This document shows, one piece after another, positions 24,001 through 33,000 of a stretch of DNA of 64,000 bases (positions are counted from its first letter, which is position 1; the number at the start of each line of letters is the position of its first letter). Position numbers: made by a program. Source of the DNA: Chitinophagales bacterium (GTDB lineage Bacteria; Bacteroidota; Bacteroidia; Chitinophagales; UBA8649); the NCBI GenBank assembly GCA_020635975.1, contig JACJYT010000004.1, forward strand, positions 150,388 to 214,387, given 5' to 3'.

Positions 24001-27000
24001 TTTTTATTTTTCCCTTCCTTTTTTATTTTTTCGAAGGTCTTTTGTAGGTAGGCTTCGCCTCTTTCGTCGTTTGGAAAGAGCTCGCACATTTTATCGTGTA
24101 AAGCGCAAAAGTTGCATTCTCCTTTGCTATCAAAACTAATTCCCGGAACCGTCGAATCTTGCACACAGCGTGTACAAACTTGCATACTTAAGTTGCTGGC
24201 AATTCCGTTTACTACAACACTCATTTATTTTGTTTAAATTTATCGCTAAAATAATGGATTTCAGATGAAAAAGATTTTAAAACTGCTTTTCTTTTTTATG
24301 CTTGCCTTTGCGCAGGCGCAAGACACAAGTATCTTATTAGAAATACCCAAGTTAAATACAGAAGTATTTGGCGACACGATAGTTAGAACCATTACCGCAG
24401 GCGAAAATGGGGCAAGTTTTAGATTTATAGATCCAGAATATGGAAAGTCTTTTTGGAATAAGGACTCCCTTCTCTTATTTATAGTAGAGTCCTATGCACT
24501 CGATTCTAATTCTTCTGCTTATGATTTAGCTTTTGCCGCTGCAGATTTTATTAAGAACGGAGGAGCAGAACAAAGAATGTTTGGACACGGAATTCCAGGT
24601 AATTGTACTTATAGATATAAGAAAGATTTTCGTAGTGAGTTTTCCAGTTCCTTCTATCTTCCTAGAAAATTGGAAGAAGATTATGTAAAAGAATTCGGGC
24701 GCTTAAGCAATAGTATTGCCACGGTATTAGGCATAGATTTCTCGGCAATTATGTATCTATCAGAAAAAGTGGCATTAGCTGCTTTTTATAATAAAGCTAG
24801 TAAGAAGTGGGAGCTAATAGACCCTAGTCCAAGTACCTCTACCTTTGTTCCCAAACAAGGCAGTAGTTTGGTAAGTTTAGATCAATTGAGAGCTAAACCA
24901 GAAATATTATTAGATAAAGCATCTCTAGTTAAGGCAAAGTTCTTTAATTGCAGCGACTCCTTATCTCGGTTTTTTTCTTATCAAGAACTTCTAGATAATT
25001 TAGACAATTTAAAAACTACGAATATTACAGAAGATGCAGATACTTTAGAGAATTTTGATAATTATTACAAATTGTTGCCCGGCCAAGAATTAAAATGGAT
25101 TACCACCATAGATTATCAATATGTTGATTATAAAAAATGCGAAACTTCTTTTGAATCCATTCTCAAATTAGCCGAATACGCCGATTCTGCAACTTTAGTG
25201 CAAAAGCTTTATGCTCTTGCTGCTTGCTACGGAGTAGCAAAGCTTCCTTTTTTAGAGCACTTAACCGAAGGACATGGAGTTTTTGCGGCGAAAGCCTACC
25301 TTTCTAATAATTTAGGTACAACCAATGTGTTTTCAACAAGATTAAATCAAGGTTTGCTAGAATCTTCAAGCATGTATATACCGCATCCTGTTAAGCGCAT
25401 AGAACACTCTGAAGTGTATATTGGAGCTAAAGTTATACAAGATGCTTGGCAGATGGATTTGTTTCCTCAGGGTGAGGAAACTAAGGCAACAAATCAGCAG
25501 GAAATTGTATTTATAAACGAGGATATCAAAATTGTGAAAGAATATGCAGATCTTGTTTTTTATTCGAATCATAGATATAATTTTGAAATTGATAAGGCCT
25601 TTAATCTCGTATTAGAAGAAGGAGATGTAGAGGTAAAACACTATGTTAATGGTAAATTAAAGGCTGCAATTAGCTCTAAAAAAGATTAAGGCATTAAGTT
25701 CTAAAAGGGCTTTGCAAAACTACTATCTATTGCTAAAATTTGATCAAATAGTGCTTTGGAGTAAGCTGTATATCCTTTTTCATTAAAGTGACAATCTATC
25801 GGCCAATAATAAGCATTGCAATTGTCATTGAACAAAGAACTAAGGTCTATTAGCTTGATTTCGGGATTATTTTGTTTTAGTTGTTCTCTGATGCTTTCAA
25901 GTTCAAAGGACTTGTTATTACACTCGTGCAATAAGGCTTGAAAAACCAAATAAAAATTTATATTTTGTTCTTCACAGAAAGCATGATATTGAACAATGCT
26001 TTTATAAATTTCATTCTCGATTAGTGCTTTTAACTCCTCTCGCTCCTGAGTATAGAGTAAATCCTTACCTAAATTTAAGACCTCGTGAGAGAAATGTCTG
26101 AAAATAAAACTAAGTCCATAGAAATATTGAAAAACCAAAGACCTTCCGAAATTTTCTGTTTCTCTTTTTGTTTTACATTGATAGATTAAATCAATAATAT
26201 CTGTGGAATTAAGATTTAGAATTATATTCTCGGCCCTATAACCCTGTTTGGTTATTTCTTGTAGTAAGCTATAATGGTTTATAAGATTGCTGCCACTTAA
26301 GCCCATGTTTAAGATACAGTTGTTGCAGGCCAGTAGGTTTTCGAGTTGTTTATCTATTGTGCCAGAAGGCTTTACCCCAACGCCTTGTACAAAGGAATCT
26401 CCCAATAAAAAGGCTTTAAATTTTTTCTGATTTTGCATGTTCTCGTCTTTATATCCGAGTTCGTTAAATACATGCAGAAAATTAAATTCCGTTTGTTCAT
26501 CACTAAATTGTTCCCCATTTTTATGTGGTTCTACTTTATGATTAAAGAAGGGCGCTGTGAATTTTGATTTACCAATTCTTTCAGAATAGCTTATATAAGG
26601 AGAAAAGAATCTTAGAGCTAGCTCAATAATTAGAATTGCTAAAAACAAGGAAAACAGCACTGAATTTTTGCGAGCTAGGTAAAGCAGGGCAAAAAGAAGT
26701 GCAATCAAGCTTGAATTTGCAATACTACCAAGATTAAAGAAATCGAAACTTGCAAGGGCAAAATAGAGAAACAAGAGAAGAACTAAGCTGAAAATTATAT
26801 TTTTAGAATTTAATTTTAGCATATAAAAGTTTGAATTTTTTAATTGCTTAAAGTTTGTTTTTATCCCTATCTAAGTGCTCGATTTGGCCAAAAGAGGATA
26901 AAACTTACCATTCGAAATTATAAGCTTTTTCCCGAAGATTTTGTCCGATTTGAACACCCTTTAATTTGTTTTCCTTTAATGCAATATCCAGTGTAGTAAG

Positions 27001-30000: not shown

Positions 30001-33000
30001 GTCGATACTATCGTATTTGTCGTAAAGCTTAGGATAAAGATTAATTAAGGGAATTTGGGCATCGAGATAATCGGGCAAAGATTCGAAAATATAAAAATTC
30101 TTATTTTCTATGTCGCTAGGAACAGGAGTCATAACTAAGTAGTATTGGATTTTATTTTTTTTGCAGAACGCGTAAGTTTCGTTCACTTGTTTGGCTAAAA
30201 CTTTGAGGGCTTGTTCTTCTTCAGCATCAATGGTTAAATTATTTATAAGGTTGTTGTCATAGGGTGTAAAAGTTGTAAGAAGAGCTCTGAAAACATAAGA
30301 GTATTTATAGAGCACCTCCCATTTTTTTGCATTAGGAGCTCCAGTTGTACCATCTGGGAGAAATCTTTCTGGTCCTCCTCGATAATAGATATCCGTAATA
30401 TCGGAATTATTTAAACATTCGATAACGATTTTTGGATTTGAAGAAAGCAAATTTTCCTTTAACATTTGGAAATCAAAAAGAGCATCGCTGCCGCAAACTC
30501 CTGCATTATAAGCAAGCACATTTGTGTCTAAACTTGTGCTCAAGCTGTTTTCAAAAAACCTAACCCAAGAGCTATCATAAGGGGCTCCATCTCCTTCTGT
30601 AAAAGAGTCGCCTAAGCAAATAATTTTAACACTCGATGTATCCTCTTGAAAGTTTTGGTAAGAAGTCTCTCTATGACCTAATTCATTATAGCTGTTGGTA
30701 TACTTAAATTCATCTAGACCATGCTTTATAGTGGTGTTTGGTGGCCAGGTATGAAACCAAGTGTTTTTAAAGCTTTGAAACTTATAAGAATAGGTGTTTA
30801 GTTGTTTCTCTTCGCTGGTTTTATTTACTCCAAAAATGCGAAGTAGAATTTCTAGAAATATGCAAACTAGTATAAATTTGATTAGATACTCTTTCCACTT
30901 AATTTTTAAGTCTTTATCCATAAGATCAAGTTTGTATTAAACAAGAAACACTCTTTACCTTAACGAAGAGAGCTTCTGGTCAGATTGGCTTAAAGTTCGT
31001 CTTTTTTCTGCATACTACGAGCTTCTAGTGCTTAAAGTCATTATCTAATTTAATAATTTCTTCATAGAGTTTTTCACTATAAAATGTGTAGCCTTCTGTG
31101 GTAAAGTGACCATCTATAGGCCAATAGTAGTTCAAACATGCATTATTGAAGTAGTTATTCATGTTTATTGCCCAGACAGAAGTATCTGCCATTATAAGTG
31201 AAATTTCCTGGTCTAGTTGATAAATTTTGCTTGTACATTCTTCTAAACAAGGTTGAAAAACCACTATTAAGTTTATATTATTATGATCGCAATATTCTTT
31301 GTACTTGTAGATATAGTTCAATATTAAAACGTGAATCTCAGAATAGAGAAGCTCTTGTTCTTTCGGGTTAAGAAAATTATAGTTTAAACGAAATACATCG
31401 TGACAAAGGTGCCGAATTAGATAGCTATATCCATATAAGAATTGTATAGCAAGGGAAGTTTCTCTTTGTTCTATTTCTTTTATTTCCTTTGTTCGTATGG
31501 ATATTTCGAAAAGGTCGGTATAATTTAAATTAAGCAAGGCATATTCTGCATGATAACCATTCTCCACTACTTTTTGAAACTGTGCGAAATGGGTAACGAG
31601 GTCACTTCCACTTAAACCTAAGCTCATGATGCAGTTATCGCAGCCTATTTTCTTTTCTAATTGTTTGTCTATAGTATGCAAACTATCTGTTCCTACACCT
31701 TGAACAAAAGAGTCGCCTAAAAGAAAAGCTTTAAAAATTTTGCTTCTAGGGTTTTGGTCTTGATAGCCAAGGTCATTAAAATGGTGTACATAGTGAAATT
31801 CTATTTTTTCGTCTGCAAGGCTCGAACCTGGATTAAAAGGTGTGGGGGCTCTTGTAAACAGGGGAGAGGTATATTTGTTAGAGCCATTCTTTTCGGGGTA
31901 GCTTCGATAGGGGGATATAAAGGAAAGAGAGAATTCGAGAAAGAAGCTAATAAAAAATAGACTTGCAATTCTTTTGTGTTTAAATACAAAAAAAACGGAA
32001 AGTAGTGCTAGCAAAACTAGTGTTCTAGTATGAAAGCAAATTCCTAATTCAGAGAAGAGTATAGCGCTTTTGTAAATGGTCGAAATCGTAATAAAAAGTA
32101 AAACGAAGCCCAATCCTAAATAAAGAATGTCTAGCTTTTTTAATTTTATCATATACTTAATTGCTTGCCTTATTTTTTACCCACTTCCATAGGCTCCAAT
32201 TCTCATCGCCCCAGTGATGATAAATATGCACAAAACTTGCTTTATATTTTGTTTTCCATGCATCATCGCTAAAATATCCTTCGTCATTAAAATTTAAACC
32301 TTTCTTATTAAAGTCTGCTATAAAGTTCCACTTTTTACTTAGTGTTTTGTGGTTTTGCAAGCCAAATTGCCAAGCGCTTGCTATTAGGGTTCCTTGGTCT
32401 CTGGTTTTCCATTCTTTAAGAGCAAATGCGTGCAAGGTTTTTTCATGCCAAGCATTAAGAAAGTCCGTACTTTTATCGTCAAACAAGAAGACCCCGCCAT
32501 TCCAATGTTGCCAGTTTGGAGAGGCTACTTTAATGTTAAAACTGTTTTGAATATACTCATTTAGATGTGAACAATGCAAGTCCCAAATATCCTTGCGATC
32601 TTTATCTAGCCATTTTTGCGTCCACTTGTTATATTTAAAACCACTCTCTTCCTCAATTTTTTTGATGTCTACTTCATAGAGTATGTTTTCATTGGTTTTA
32701 GAATCTTTCCAAACTCTTTGCGTTTTGTCGAAATAGAAATCCTCGTTTAAATTAAAGATTTTTGGAGCTAAAAAGTAACGGAGGGCCGTCACTATTTTTC
32801 TTGGCCAATCATTCTTTAAGACATCAAAGTAATGTTGTAGTTTTTTTTGTTTCTCGATAATCTTGGCATCTTCTATTTTTCGATTTCTATCATGTTTCAA
32901 ACTGGCCCTTTCAAAAATTTCTATGTTTTTATCGCTCCTTTCTTTACAACCACAATTAACAGCGTAAGGGCTAAAATCGAGTGTTTTGCAATGATCTGGG

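Follow-up and report, generated by a model that had tools for sequence, protein, structure and literature searches.

The locus that we examine here raises the question of why a single operon holds five genes for membrane-anchored proteins of the SGNH/GDSL type, in an order that seems to alternate between two kinds of protein, and what such an array could contribute to the cell. Within the window (the whole 64,000-nucleotide stretch of DNA that was analysed), the five genes are intact paralogues from one large, uncharacterised branch of the familiar SGNH superfamily; they belong to three ancient types rather than to two alternating ones: A, with three N-terminal helices, and B1 and B2, with one each. 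The explanation that best accounts for the findings as a whole, to which we give about an even chance, is a three-type SGNH array with a variable number of A copies, which would carry out ester tailoring of an envelope product in the periplasm.

All six open reading frames of the array, five SGNH-like and one of the nitrilase superfamily, lie on the minus strand exactly at the positions that the sequence-only reading had given, and the motifs that it had quoted for its two subfamilies are all present in our alignments. In the direction of transcription, A3 (31025-32152; 375 aa) encodes an A-type paralogue with three N-terminal hydrophobic helices, a GDS motif and a D-G-H Block V; a gap of 103 nt separates it from B2 (29863-30921; 352 aa; a single anchor helix and N-G-H in Block V), which is followed by the A-type paralogue A2 (28762-29859; 365 aa) and by B1 (27746-28765; 339 aa; a single anchor helix and D-G-H in Block V). 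The next gene (26905-27741; 278 aa) encodes a soluble carbon-nitrogen (CN) hydrolase of the nitrilase superfamily, as had been proposed: it matches PF00795 (E 2e-33), its residues E44, K112 and C144 match the expected catalytic motifs, and it is 82-85% identical to the copies of relatives, always located directly after B1. An 82-nt gap precedes A1 (25701-26822; 373 aa; A-type), the last gene of the operon; the synteny comparison has found an A copy at this position in no relative. The serine of the GDS motif, the Block II glycine, the Block III asparagine and the Block V histidine are intact in all five SGNH-like proteins, and the earlier description holds: they are SGNH-type proteins with a membrane anchor, and their Block V reads (D/N)-x-H.

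The Pfam and NCBIfam SGNH scores of the array proteins are all below the curated cut-offs: matches to the Pfam model Lipase_GDSL_2 reach 19-27 bits, below its threshold of 32.9, with A3 having no match, while the DHHW and ALGX Pfam models match no protein of the window; some family members outside the window have weak ALGX matches. The branch is large and unnamed (1,087 representatives at E≤1e-30), its blocks follow the canonical S-G-N-H order, and its Block V reads (D/N)-x-H-(F/Y)-N-x-x-G-Y, a sequence that belongs to the AlgX/PatB1 type. N115, the G-D-S motif, G168, D202, H339 and Y345 are invariant in a set of 116 family members; the residue two positions before the histidine is Asn in 62 members and Asp in 54, and a Glu is located inside the anchor helix in 111, with further membrane-interface residues conserved family-wide.

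In the AlphaFold model of A2 (pLDDT 96.2), helices at residues 2-23, 28-44 and 48-67 are followed by an alpha/beta domain, where the serine is located at the end of a strand (128-135), Asn199 after the strand at 190-198, and His339 before the last helix; the geometry of the active site is a prediction from the secondary structure and the alignments. The Foldseek matches of this model are SGNH hydrolases (probability 1.0), including TesA, GDSL esterases, NgPatB and OatA's C-terminal domain, and at the level of the predicted model the SGNH fold of A2, behind three N-terminal helices, is confirmed despite the weak Pfam scores. The N-terminal flank of the anchor helix has a net charge of +1.2 in single-helix forms and +2.4 in multi-helix forms, against +0.25 and +0.7 at the C-terminal flank, a modest bias which suggests that the catalytic domain would lie outside the cytoplasmic membrane; the family member P0178, whose SGNH domain follows a cytoplasmic GT32-like DXD domain and transmembrane helices, points the same way.

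The relationships among the five paralogues have been examined by a neighbour-joining tree of 73 sequences (100 bootstraps) and by BLASTP pairwise identities. The division into two distinct subfamilies, as first proposed, stands for A but not for B: A1, A2 and A3 form one clade (bootstrap 92%; 39-46% identity), whereas B1 and B2 are 29% identical, which is comparable to their distance from A (24-29%), and are not sisters in the tree. Each has its own orthologous group (bootstrap 83% for B1 and 99% for B2), with orthologues in relatives that are 48-64% identical to B1 (L001-L004, L058) and 51-57% identical to B2; A3 groups with the A gene of L003 (58% identity, bootstrap 78%). The motifs that had been assigned to B (LGDSFxxGxGA, NAGxxGSD and SDIxDxxxRGGxERF) are the consensus across the whole wider family and are retained ancestral characters; B2 is the widespread ancestral type of the branch.

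A profile search against the PDB has returned B. cereus PatB1 as the best match (E 1.9e-9), covering the segment before Block V and D-H-H-W-N; the serine block, which is downstream in PatB1, aligns weakly to Block I of the family, as a circular permutation would lead one to expect. According to a review (PMC9487903), a DxH Block V goes together with the block order H-S-G-N in the AlgX and DHHW families. The array family shares with the SGNH-like polysaccharide O-acetyltransferases PatB1, P. aeruginosa AlgX and AlgJ the D-x-H Block V followed by an aromatic residue and N/T...G, a segment of ~120 residues before Block V, and a membrane-tethered, extracytoplasmic location (predicted for the array proteins), but it differs in its unpermuted S-G-N-H order, in having GDS rather than KDS or GTSYS in Block I, in its intact Gly of Block II and Asn of Block III, where those proteins have Arg or Tyr, in the Asn that replaces the catalytic Asp in half of its members, and in having no MBOAT partner (PatA1, AlgI) in the window or related loci. 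With PatB, OatA's C-terminal domain, and OafA, it shares the SGNH fold, the canonical block order, an N-terminal membrane helix, a periplasmic domain (again predicted here) and a context of glycan biosynthesis, and its Foldseek matches include NgPatB (E 4e-4) and the OatA domain; unlike these MBOAT- or AT3-fed enzymes, the array has no MBOAT/AT3 gene or domain in the window or related loci, its Block V is DxH or NxH instead of DxxH, and its proteins carry a large helical insert that separates Block III from Block V. The classical GDSL esterases, such as E. coli TesA, Iah1 and bacterial “lipolytic G-D-S-L” proteins, have Blocks I-III and the core fold in common with the array proteins (TM-score up to 0.73 relative to the target), but they are soluble proteins of 180-240 aa with a DxxH Block V, whereas the array proteins have 340-375 aa, 1-3 anchor helices and a helical insert of ~100 residues, and are encoded inside a biosynthetic operon.

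Two further likenesses are of note. The NCBIfam model NF047474 (“LA_2486 family SGNH/GDSL-type esterase”, an uncharacterised, hypothetical equivalog from Leptospira) is matched end-to-end by B2 (residues 13-334 against model positions 4-324 of 326, E 1.5e-12) and weakly by B1 and A1; as the scores are 21-47 bits (47 for B2) against a cut-off of 300 bits, the model represents a related branch but another family, and our literature search has found no mention of LA_2486. The clusters that contain SxtL, a protein of small-molecule alkaloid biosynthesis, have the same gene module, in which a carbamoyltransferase and SxtJ are joined by a small SxtK/DUF5989-like protein and by a GDSL/SGNH protein (PMC2679770), and SxtL (~426 aa) is similar in size to family members of 400-430 aa; the comparison is one of module and size.

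The array genes are the distal end of an 11-gene operon with the order methyltransferase, UbiA, AsnB, twitch radical SAM, u391, A3, B2, A2, B1, CN-hydrolase and A1; the operon is tightly packed, and its first four genes span 33329-38572. Pfam identifies the methyltransferase (37658-38572), the UbiA-family prenyltransferase (36519-37661) and the AsnB-like amidotransferase (34747-36516), and NCBIfam N_Twi_rSAM identifies the N-terminal-twitch radical SAM protein (33329-34759; 171 bits, cut-off 170), all on the minus strand; the same set is found beside family members in L005, L011, L013 and L028. The gene u391 (32157-33332, minus strand) encodes a conserved soluble protein with a DTD motif, for which Pfam and PDB sequence searches have given no match; it is the usual upstream neighbour of B2-type genes, with homologues upstream of an SGNH gene in L004, L005, L009-L011, L013, L022, L028, L033 and L058. 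On the other side of the array, also on the minus strand, are a WbuX-type N-acetyl-sugar amidotransferase (23034-24224; NCBIfam WbuX 216 bits, cut-off 203) and a carbamoyltransferase (21406-23034; Pfam Carbam_trans_N and Carbam_trans_C), which in the TARA relative (L004) directly follow the CN-hydrolase. A plus-strand module (11170-13540) consists of a carbamoyltransferase, a DUF5989 protein (49 aa) and an SxtJ-like protein (119 aa); such a module adjoins family members in L005, L008, L011, L041, L042 and L049. With its GT2 and GT-C-like transferases, amino-sugar enzymes, WbuX and carbamoyltransferases, the surrounding island is one of glycan or lipid tailoring. The acyl-donor partner that had been reported as not visible is indeed not seen: no MBOAT or AT3 protein has been found among the 53 open reading frames of at least 120 aa in the 64-kb window, and none is recurrent in 37 related loci or among the 146 neighbours of family members in related genomes that had no other assignment; outside the window, the genome may still encode one.

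We regard it as most likely that the array proteins work independently of one another in the periplasm, as esterases or transacylases that tailor a glycoconjugate of this island, and we infer their topology, substrate and reaction direction as follows. An N-in anchor would hold the catalytic domain of each protein at the periplasmic side of the inner membrane; the GDS serine (Ser137 in A2) would attack an ester and form an acyl-enzyme, aided by His339 and Asp337, with the oxyanion stabilised by Gly168 and Asn199 (A2 numbering); in B2, with Asn in place of Asp, a Ser-His dyad is possible. Either water or a sugar hydroxyl would then resolve the acyl-enzyme, which would make the protein an esterase in the first case and a transacylase in the second; each paralogue would serve a separate position or a separate ester-linked acyl or carbamoyl group on a sugar-containing envelope product that the surrounding island builds, with no MBOAT/AT3 donor relay. 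The lack of such a relay tilts the balance a little towards enzymes that hydrolyse or transfer groups already put in place, or towards a membrane lipid as donor, and the UbiA, CMAS-like methyltransferase and LpxO-like hydroxylases of the operon make a lipid target possible.

A different origin and mode of action would follow if A and B were two subfamilies that form an obligate A+B heteromer, the array having grown by tandem duplication of an A-B unit, as the sequence-only reading had held. One A, one B1 and one B2 gene occur together in every close relative, with gaps of at most 4 nt or overlaps, an arrangement that would fit translational coupling and a shared pathway; such co-conservation, however, shows a shared pathway only. 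The comparison of gene order in six close relatives with A-type genes, mostly on short contigs, contradicts the duplication of a pair: the order is u391-B2-A-B1-CN-hydrolase in L004 and L058, B2-A-B1 in L002, B2-A-A-B1-CN-hydrolase in L001 and A-B2-B1-CN-hydrolase in L003, so that B2, B1 and the CN-hydrolase keep a constant order across the six contigs, a repeated pair is never seen, and the A copies alone vary in number and position. It is this variation that gives the array its A-B-A-B-A appearance, and a strict alternation of three A and two B genes arises by chance in 1 in 10 of the possible orderings. Also against the pair are the separate, non-sister orthologous groups of B1 and B2 and their lower identity in comparison with the A copies, the many genomes that have a B2-type gene without any A or B1, and the absence of a DNA-level repeat unit, the repeats in the array being just motif-encoding stretches of 20-54 nt. 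We consider this the least probable of the readings that we have weighed. Other multi-paralogue clusters occur in L012 and L022 (six copies each) and in L035 (four), their copies being spread over different branches of the tree.

The remaining alternatives concern the substrate and the side of the membrane. The proteins could act on a membrane lipid or glycolipid instead of a glycan; as acyl hydrolases of a (lyso)phospholipase-like kind, or as transacylases, they would then remodel acyl chains on the outer face of the inner membrane. SGNH enzymes such as GCAT use phospholipid donors. The JGI label “lysophospholipase L1-like esterase” on several family members, the Foldseek match to TesA, the anchor-helix Glu with the conserved membrane-interface residues, and the presence in the operon and island of UbiA, a CMAS-like methyltransferase, PEMT/ICMT, LpxO-like Asp/Asn hydroxylases, PhyH dioxygenases and B12-radical SAM methylases all point this way; the JGI names, however, are homology labels only, the closest sequence relative of solved structure is a polysaccharide O-acetyltransferase, one family member (P0178) has its SGNH domain fused behind a cytoplasmic GT32-like DXD glycosyltransferase domain and transmembrane helices, and the immediately syntenic genes encode sugar enzymes (WbuX, DegT, GFO, GT2), which leaves a lipid target unlikely. 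It is improbable that the domains point into the cytoplasm, where they would work at the inner leaflet on intermediates that are nucleotide sugars or lipid-linked, as part of a membrane complex with cytoplasmic enzymes such as the carbamoyltransferase and the small proteins SxtJ and DUF5989: the neighbouring tailoring enzymes are all cytoplasmic, the positive charges of B1 are ambiguous, being more numerous after its anchor helix (R-x-x-K-K-x-K) than before it (KK), and the hydropathy of P0178 gives only two clear helices between its two domains, but the family-wide bias favours an N-in, domain-out arrangement, in the A-type proteins the N-terminus is short and basic and the loop that links helices 2 and 3 is rich in K/R, three helices are clear in the homologue P0165, and the characterised relatives PatB1, AlgJ, PatB and DltD are extracytoplasmic (PMC9487903, PMC12148441). 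Very improbable, in our view, is a family dedicated to carbamoyl groups, which would remove or relocate O-carbamoyl together with the NodU/SxtI-type carbamoyltransferase, SxtJ and SxtK-like membrane proteins. The carbamoyltransferase-SxtJ(-DUF5989) module adjoins family members in six loci and lies 12 kb away in the window, a second carbamoyltransferase is two to four genes from the array, and the saxitoxin genes sxtI-J-K-L include the GDSL-lipase gene sxtL, whose product is a proposed decarbamoylase; in the L. wollei cluster, sxtL is absent and sxtI is truncated (PMC2679770, PMC3037375). This role of SxtL is a proposal only, however, a carbamoyltransferase occurs within 10 kb in just 7 of the 37 related loci, and the three to five paralogues per operon outnumber the carbamoyltransferases. 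Carbamates, moreover, usually inactivate serine hydrolases.

Besides the five genes of the array, three remote genes bring the SGNH-like open reading frames of the window to the eight that had been counted. One (16526-17776, minus strand; 416 aa; GDS, D-Y-H-F-N) has an orthologue at the syntenic position in L004 (54% identity); the other two, on the plus strand, are a gene with GDS and N-G-H-F-N (48025-49257) and one of a distinct type with GGS and D-V-V-H (49271-50491). Divergent to this pair lies a gene for a polytopic membrane protein (46542-47954), which we have considered as an MBOAT and rejected: its model is GT-C-like (pLDDT 89.8), with ArnT, PimE and AftD as the best folds.

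The ORF listing of the window agrees exactly with the sequence-only reading on the six consecutive minus-strand genes: A1 (25701-26822), the nitrilase-superfamily CN-hydrolase gene (CNH; 26905-27741, 278 aa), B1 (27746-28765), A2 (28762-29859), B2 (29863-30921) and A3 (31025-32152), where A1, A2, A3, B1 and B2 are SGNH-like. Eight SGNH ORFs had been counted in the window, and the three that are located outside the array are found at 16526-17776, 48025-49257 and 49271-50491; every motif that had been quoted is present in our alignments. The sequence observation of the array is accurate; its reading as an alternating, pair-duplicated array is over-interpreted, and the array genes are new additions to an uncharacterised SGNH-superfamily branch, here called the family.

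The array is the tail of an 11-gene operon, which consists of a methyltransferase, UbiA, AsnB, a radical SAM enzyme with an N-terminal twitch domain, u391 (a soluble protein without family match, 32157-33332, minus strand), A3, B2, A2, B1, CNH and A1. Sizeable gaps occur only after A3 (103 nt) and before A1 (82 nt), both being specific to the window, while the remaining junctions of the array are of at most 4 nt or overlap. A scan for sigma-70 promoters and terminators, which is ill-suited to Bacteroidota, gave hits at or below the shuffled expectation. The NCBI record of A2 (H6579_04915) is 313 aa long, beginning some 52 codons further downstream than our ORF; in favour of the longer form are the conservation of the N-terminal helices in orthologues of 369-372 aa and the high model confidence in this region.

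In the comparison with profile models, as the sequence-only reading had suggested, A1, A2, B1 and B2 match Lipase_GDSL_2 below threshold (18.8-27.0 bits, cut-off 32.9), with alignments that span model positions 1-177 of 178, and A3 has no match to this model in the Pfam scan; the ALGX (PF16822) and DHHW models match no window protein at E<=1, weak ALGX matches being limited to two remote family members. The nearest curated model is NCBIfam NF047474, the “LA_2486 family SGNH/GDSL-type esterase”, an uncharacterised hypothetical equivalog, to which B2 aligns end to end; the scores of B2 (47.4 bits), B1 (23.2), A1 (21.1) and A2 (16.6) are all far under its 300-bit cut-off, A3 has no match to it, and our literature search found no mention of LA_2486.

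The AlphaFold model of A2, built from a 116-sequence alignment (pLDDT 96.2), contains N-terminal helices at residues 2-23, 28-44 and 48-67, followed by an alpha/beta domain; its predicted layout is canonical SGNH, with a three-layer alpha/beta/alpha fold. A Foldseek search with this model has returned 38 matches at E<=1e-3, nearly all of them SGNH-fold enzymes: GDSL esterases, TesA, Iah1 and CgnD and, lower down, NgPatB and OatA's C-terminal domain. The GDS motif, located after strand 128-135 in the model, is invariant in the five array proteins and in all 116 family members; Gly168 of Block II is invariant too, while Asn199 of Block III, located after strand 190-198, occurs in all five array proteins and in 96 of the 116 members. 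Across the 116 members, N115, G-D-S, G168, D202, H339 and Y345 (A2 numbering) are invariant, and E61 (inside the anchor helix), E75, R236, W334, N341 and G344 are nearly so. Four cysteines, including a C-x-x-C pair, are invariant in the A-type proteins (A2 residues 160, 163, 295 and 329) and absent from B1 and B2; they may be paired in disulfides, as would suit a periplasmic location, or bind a metal.

The catalytic histidine of Block V (His339), located ahead of the last helix in the model, is also invariant; in the A-type proteins and B1, the acidic residue is located two positions upstream (DxH) and not three, as in the canonical DxxH. The Block V pattern (D/N)-x-H-(F/Y)-N, which had been noticed in place of the canonical D-x-x-H-P, is borne out by the alignment of the array proteins: D-x-H-F/Y-N in A1-A3 and B1, N-G-H-F-N in B2. 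With Asn instead of Asp at this position, as in 62 of the 116 family members (the other 54 have Asp), B2-type enzymes may, judging from the alignment, operate with a Ser-His dyad. A DxH Block V is known from the AlgX and DHHW families, where it accompanies a circularly permuted H-S-G-N order (PMC9487903); the order in our family is S-G-N-H. The top match in the profile search of PDB sequences is PatB1 of B. cereus (E 1.9e-9), over family positions 217-334, a region that includes a helical insert and Block V, with W-x-x-D-x-H-F-N-x-x-G-Y of the family aligned to F-K-T-D-H-H-W-N-x-x-G of PatB1; the serine block L-K-D-S-F, located downstream in PatB1, aligns weakly with L-G-D-S-F of the N-terminal Block I. 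The family therefore joins the canonical order and Blocks I-III with a Block V region of the AlgX/DHHW type, which explains the “(D/N)-x-H” of the sequence-only reading.

The family is large: among 1.84 billion representatives (50%-identity clusters), its profile finds 1,087 proteins when E≤1e-30 is required and 10,899 when the limit is E≤1e-10, and its members in reference genomes come mostly from Bacteroidota MAGs. Its architectures comprise one-helix proteins of 330-360 aa, proteins of 400-430 aa that, like type A, have additional helices at the N-terminus, proteins of about 600 aa (P0163, P0176 and P0100: one helix, a non-membrane segment of about 130 residues, four helices, then SGNH) and fusions, where P0178 (671 aa) carries a GT32-like DXD glycosyltransferase domain and membrane helices ahead of SGNH, and P0227 (862 aa) a polytopic N-terminus of 500 aa; the N-terminal parts of these five proteins have no Pfam match.

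The claim of two alternating subfamilies holds for one of them. In an all-against-all BLASTP comparison, the A proteins are 39-46% identical to each other (E about 1e-90), B1 and B2 are 29% identical, and A-B pairs 24-29%. Neighbour-joining with 73 members of the family (100 bootstraps) recovers the A clade with 92% support, a B1 group with 83% and a B2 group with 99%, so that of the separable clades that a phylogeny was expected to show, A stands and a single B clade does not: B1 and B2 are not sisters, and many other family members fall between them. Six related contigs, obtained through protein and pattern searches, contain separate orthologues of B1 (48-64% identity) and B2 (51-57%), and the “B” motifs correspond to the overall consensus of the wider family. 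The “B” type is a grade, defined by ancestral characters that its members have kept; A is derived, a clade with two more helices at its N-terminus.

Nor is the duplication of an A-B pair as a unit supported. In the direction of transcription, the order is u391-A3-B2-A2-B1-CNH-A1 in the window, u391-B2-A-B1-CNH in both L004 (a TARA Oceans scaffold with synteny over 14 kb) and L058, B2-A-B1 in L002, B2-A-A-B1-CNH in L001 and A-B2-B1-CNH in the closest relative, L003; the order B2→B1→CNH is thus constant and the variation is confined to the A copies. Strict alternation of three A and two B genes is one of 10 possible orderings. The repeats at the DNA level, of 20-54 nt, are confined to the stretches that code for Blocks I and V, which indicates that the duplications are old; recent duplication has been rejected on these repeats and on the GC content of the array, which at about 34% equals that of the flanking DNA. 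We hold the account of three types with variable A copies with high confidence. Several other loci (L012, L022 and L035) contain four to six divergent paralogues each, and multiple SGNH types per cluster are therefore a general trait.

The O-acylation of bacterial surface polymers is usually the work of an SGNH enzyme to which a membrane protein of the MBOAT or AT3 kind passes the acyl group. That no such partner is visible, as had been remarked, is confirmed: MBOAT (PF03062) and AT3 (PF01757) have no match among the 53 ORFs of the 64-kb window, they are absent from the families shared by at least two of the 146 unassigned neighbours in related loci, and the fusion partners within the family are GT32-like or unassigned membrane domains and not MBOAT or AT3. 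The protein encoded at 46542-47954, beside two SGNH-like genes, might have been a hidden MBOAT, a reading that we rejected; its model (pLDDT 89.8) resembles the GT-C enzymes ArnT, PimE, AftD, DPY19 and ALG3, with no MBOAT among the matches. The branch differs from the known systems in this lack of an acyl-donor partner, in its combination of canonical order with an AlgX/PatB1-type Block V and in its variable membrane modules.

The embedded carbon-nitrogen hydrolase is likewise corroborated (PF00795, E 2e-33; 116.3 bits, cut-off 23.2), with the triad residues E44, K112 and C144 in the expected motifs LPE, K-I-N-L and I-C-A-D; no specific NCBIfam equivalog reaches its cut-off. An Lnt-like role as acyl donor enzyme has been rejected: the protein is soluble, its partial match to Lnt (E 6e-8) is far under the cut-off, and amidases match better. 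The gene is unusually conserved, with 82-85% identity in relatives against 48-64% for the SGNH genes. In L004 (4935-6964) it directly adjoins the WbuX PP-loop amidotransferase, while in the window A1 and one plus-strand gene are located between the CN-hydrolase and WbuX (23034-24224); the enzyme could serve WbuX as its glutaminase subunit, in a NadE-like split, or act as an N-decarbamoylase. The product of the plus-strand gene (24265-25689), 474 aa long, begins with a signal-peptide-like stretch and matches no family; no homologue of it was found in any related locus.

At 11170-13540 (plus strand), a carbamoyltransferase precedes DUF5989 (49 aa, 76.8 bits) and an SxtJ-like protein (119 aa, 38.1 bits); this is an sxtI/J/K-type module of saxitoxin clusters, within a Chitinophagales glycan island. 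In six loci (L005, L008, L011, L041, L042 and L049), family members directly abut genes for a carbamoyltransferase and a small SxtJ-like protein, in some cases also for DUF5989. In saxitoxin clusters, the order is sxtI-J-K-L, where sxtL encodes a “GDSL-lipase” that has only been proposed to remove the carbamoyl group; the L. wollei cluster lacks sxtL and has a truncated sxtI (PMC2679770, PMC3037375). What links SxtL to the family is the common gene module, and we regard a possible kinship as a lead. Outside the operon, the window encodes two carbamoyltransferases in all, the WbuX N-acetyl-sugar amidotransferase, DegT and GFO amino-sugar enzymes, three small GT2s, several B12-radical SAM enzymes, LpxO-like hydroxylases and PhyH dioxygenases. 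Within 10 kb of the family member in 37 genome loci, the neighbours include a twitch radical SAM enzyme (14 loci), a carbamoyltransferase (7), u391 (6) and UbiA (6), and L005, L011, L013 and L028 have in common the order UbiA-AsnB-(epimerase or radical SAM)-u391-SGNH. We have found no paper that combines SGNH, carbamoyltransferase, UbiA and radical SAM.

From these sequence comparisons, we propose that the array proteins would be serine esterases or transacylases of the periplasm, anchored N-in and acting independently, that every one of the three types would have a specificity of its own, and that they would tailor ester-linked groups on the glycoconjugate of the island after its export or flipping across the membrane, with no need for a dedicated MBOAT or AT3 relay; we give this account about even chances. 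In the A-type proteins, the N-terminus is short and basic, the first loop neutral and the second loop rich in K/R; family-wide, the net charge on the N-terminal flank of the anchor helix is +1.2 in single-helix and +2.4 in multi-helix forms, and that on the C-terminal flank +0.25 and +0.7, respectively. Hydropathy, the model, this charge bias and the GT32-like fusion together favour, with moderate confidence, a predicted N-in orientation with an extracytoplasmic catalytic domain; PatB, AlgJ and PatB1 are likewise N-in, with the catalytic domain outside (PMC9487903, PMC12148441). The flank charges of B1 alone are ambiguous for orientation, and P0178 has only two strong helices by hydropathy. 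A catalytic domain that faces the cytoplasm is improbable. That the target is a lipid instead of a glycan, in an island with both amino-sugar enzymes and LpxO-like hydroxylases, is unlikely. A dedicated carbamoyl function, to which the six abutting modules could point and which would have to extend to loci of the family where no carbamoyltransferase is counted nearby, is very improbable, and slightly more so is an obligate A+B pair, where the two kinds would act only together, next to A copies that vary while B2 and B1 keep their order.

If the proposed periplasmic esterases or transacylases are transferases, they would point to another way in which acyl or carbamoyl groups are made available outside the membrane, in a family that comprises, at E≤1e-30, about a thousand clusters of 50% identity and lacks an MBOAT or AT3 partner; if they are esterases, they would carry out a multi-step de-protection in the building of a glycoconjugate of Chitinophagales and related Bacteroidota. 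The recurrent carbamoyltransferase-SxtJ-SxtK link also provides a testable idea for the never-characterised SxtJ, SxtK and SxtL. As a speculation to which we give little credence, the SGNH branch, possibly including SxtL, might be the periplasmic arm of an MBOAT/AT3-independent decoration of envelope glycoconjugates: carbamoyl or acyl esters would be installed or activated at the inner membrane face by NodU/SxtI-type carbamoyltransferases, held at the membrane by the small SxtJ and DUF5989, and then moved or removed outside by anchored SGNH paralogues, each at a defined position, with the anchor-helix Glu contacting the lipid-linked substrate or small membrane partners.

Additional features of the island are located around these genes. 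The radical SAM gene at 33329-34759, with its N-terminal twitch/SPASM-like domain (NCBIfam N_Twi_rSAM), is of the type that is the commonest neighbour of the SGNH family, and genes of this type occur as four to six tandem or clustered paralogues in some genomes (L013, L022 and L041). Searches of PDB sequences with the u391 profile and two membrane proteins of 470-475 aa returned nothing useful. Six polytopic proteins with 8-11 predicted helices (6728-9214, 40837-42264, 46542-47954, 55053-56699, 59209-60876 and 60965-62653) have no membrane-domain family assignment, one of them carrying C-terminal TPR repeats; the last five, and the remote SGNH genes, have no NCBIfam match. Each small GT2 is located near one of the six, which, with the GT-C-like model of 46542-47954, fits polyprenyl-phosphate-sugar-dependent periplasmic glycosylation. 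The minus-strand ORFs 50522-51442 and 51662-52048 together correspond to one B12-binding radical SAM enzyme, the first being 64% identical to residues 205-502 and the second 55% identical to residues 3-130 of the intact paralogue at 57646-59205; since about 74 residues are missing between them, they are a split or decaying gene. Lastly, the regions 13543-21419 and 48025-59205 contain paralogous cassettes, each with an Asp/Asn hydroxylase and a B12-radical SAM enzyme (17789/14971 and 56858/57646), a GFO oxidoreductase and a small GT2 (18594/19610 and 53893/53173), and an SGNH-like gene (at 16526 and 48025, 37% identical), a pattern in the gene content that suggests the segmental duplication of a tailoring module.
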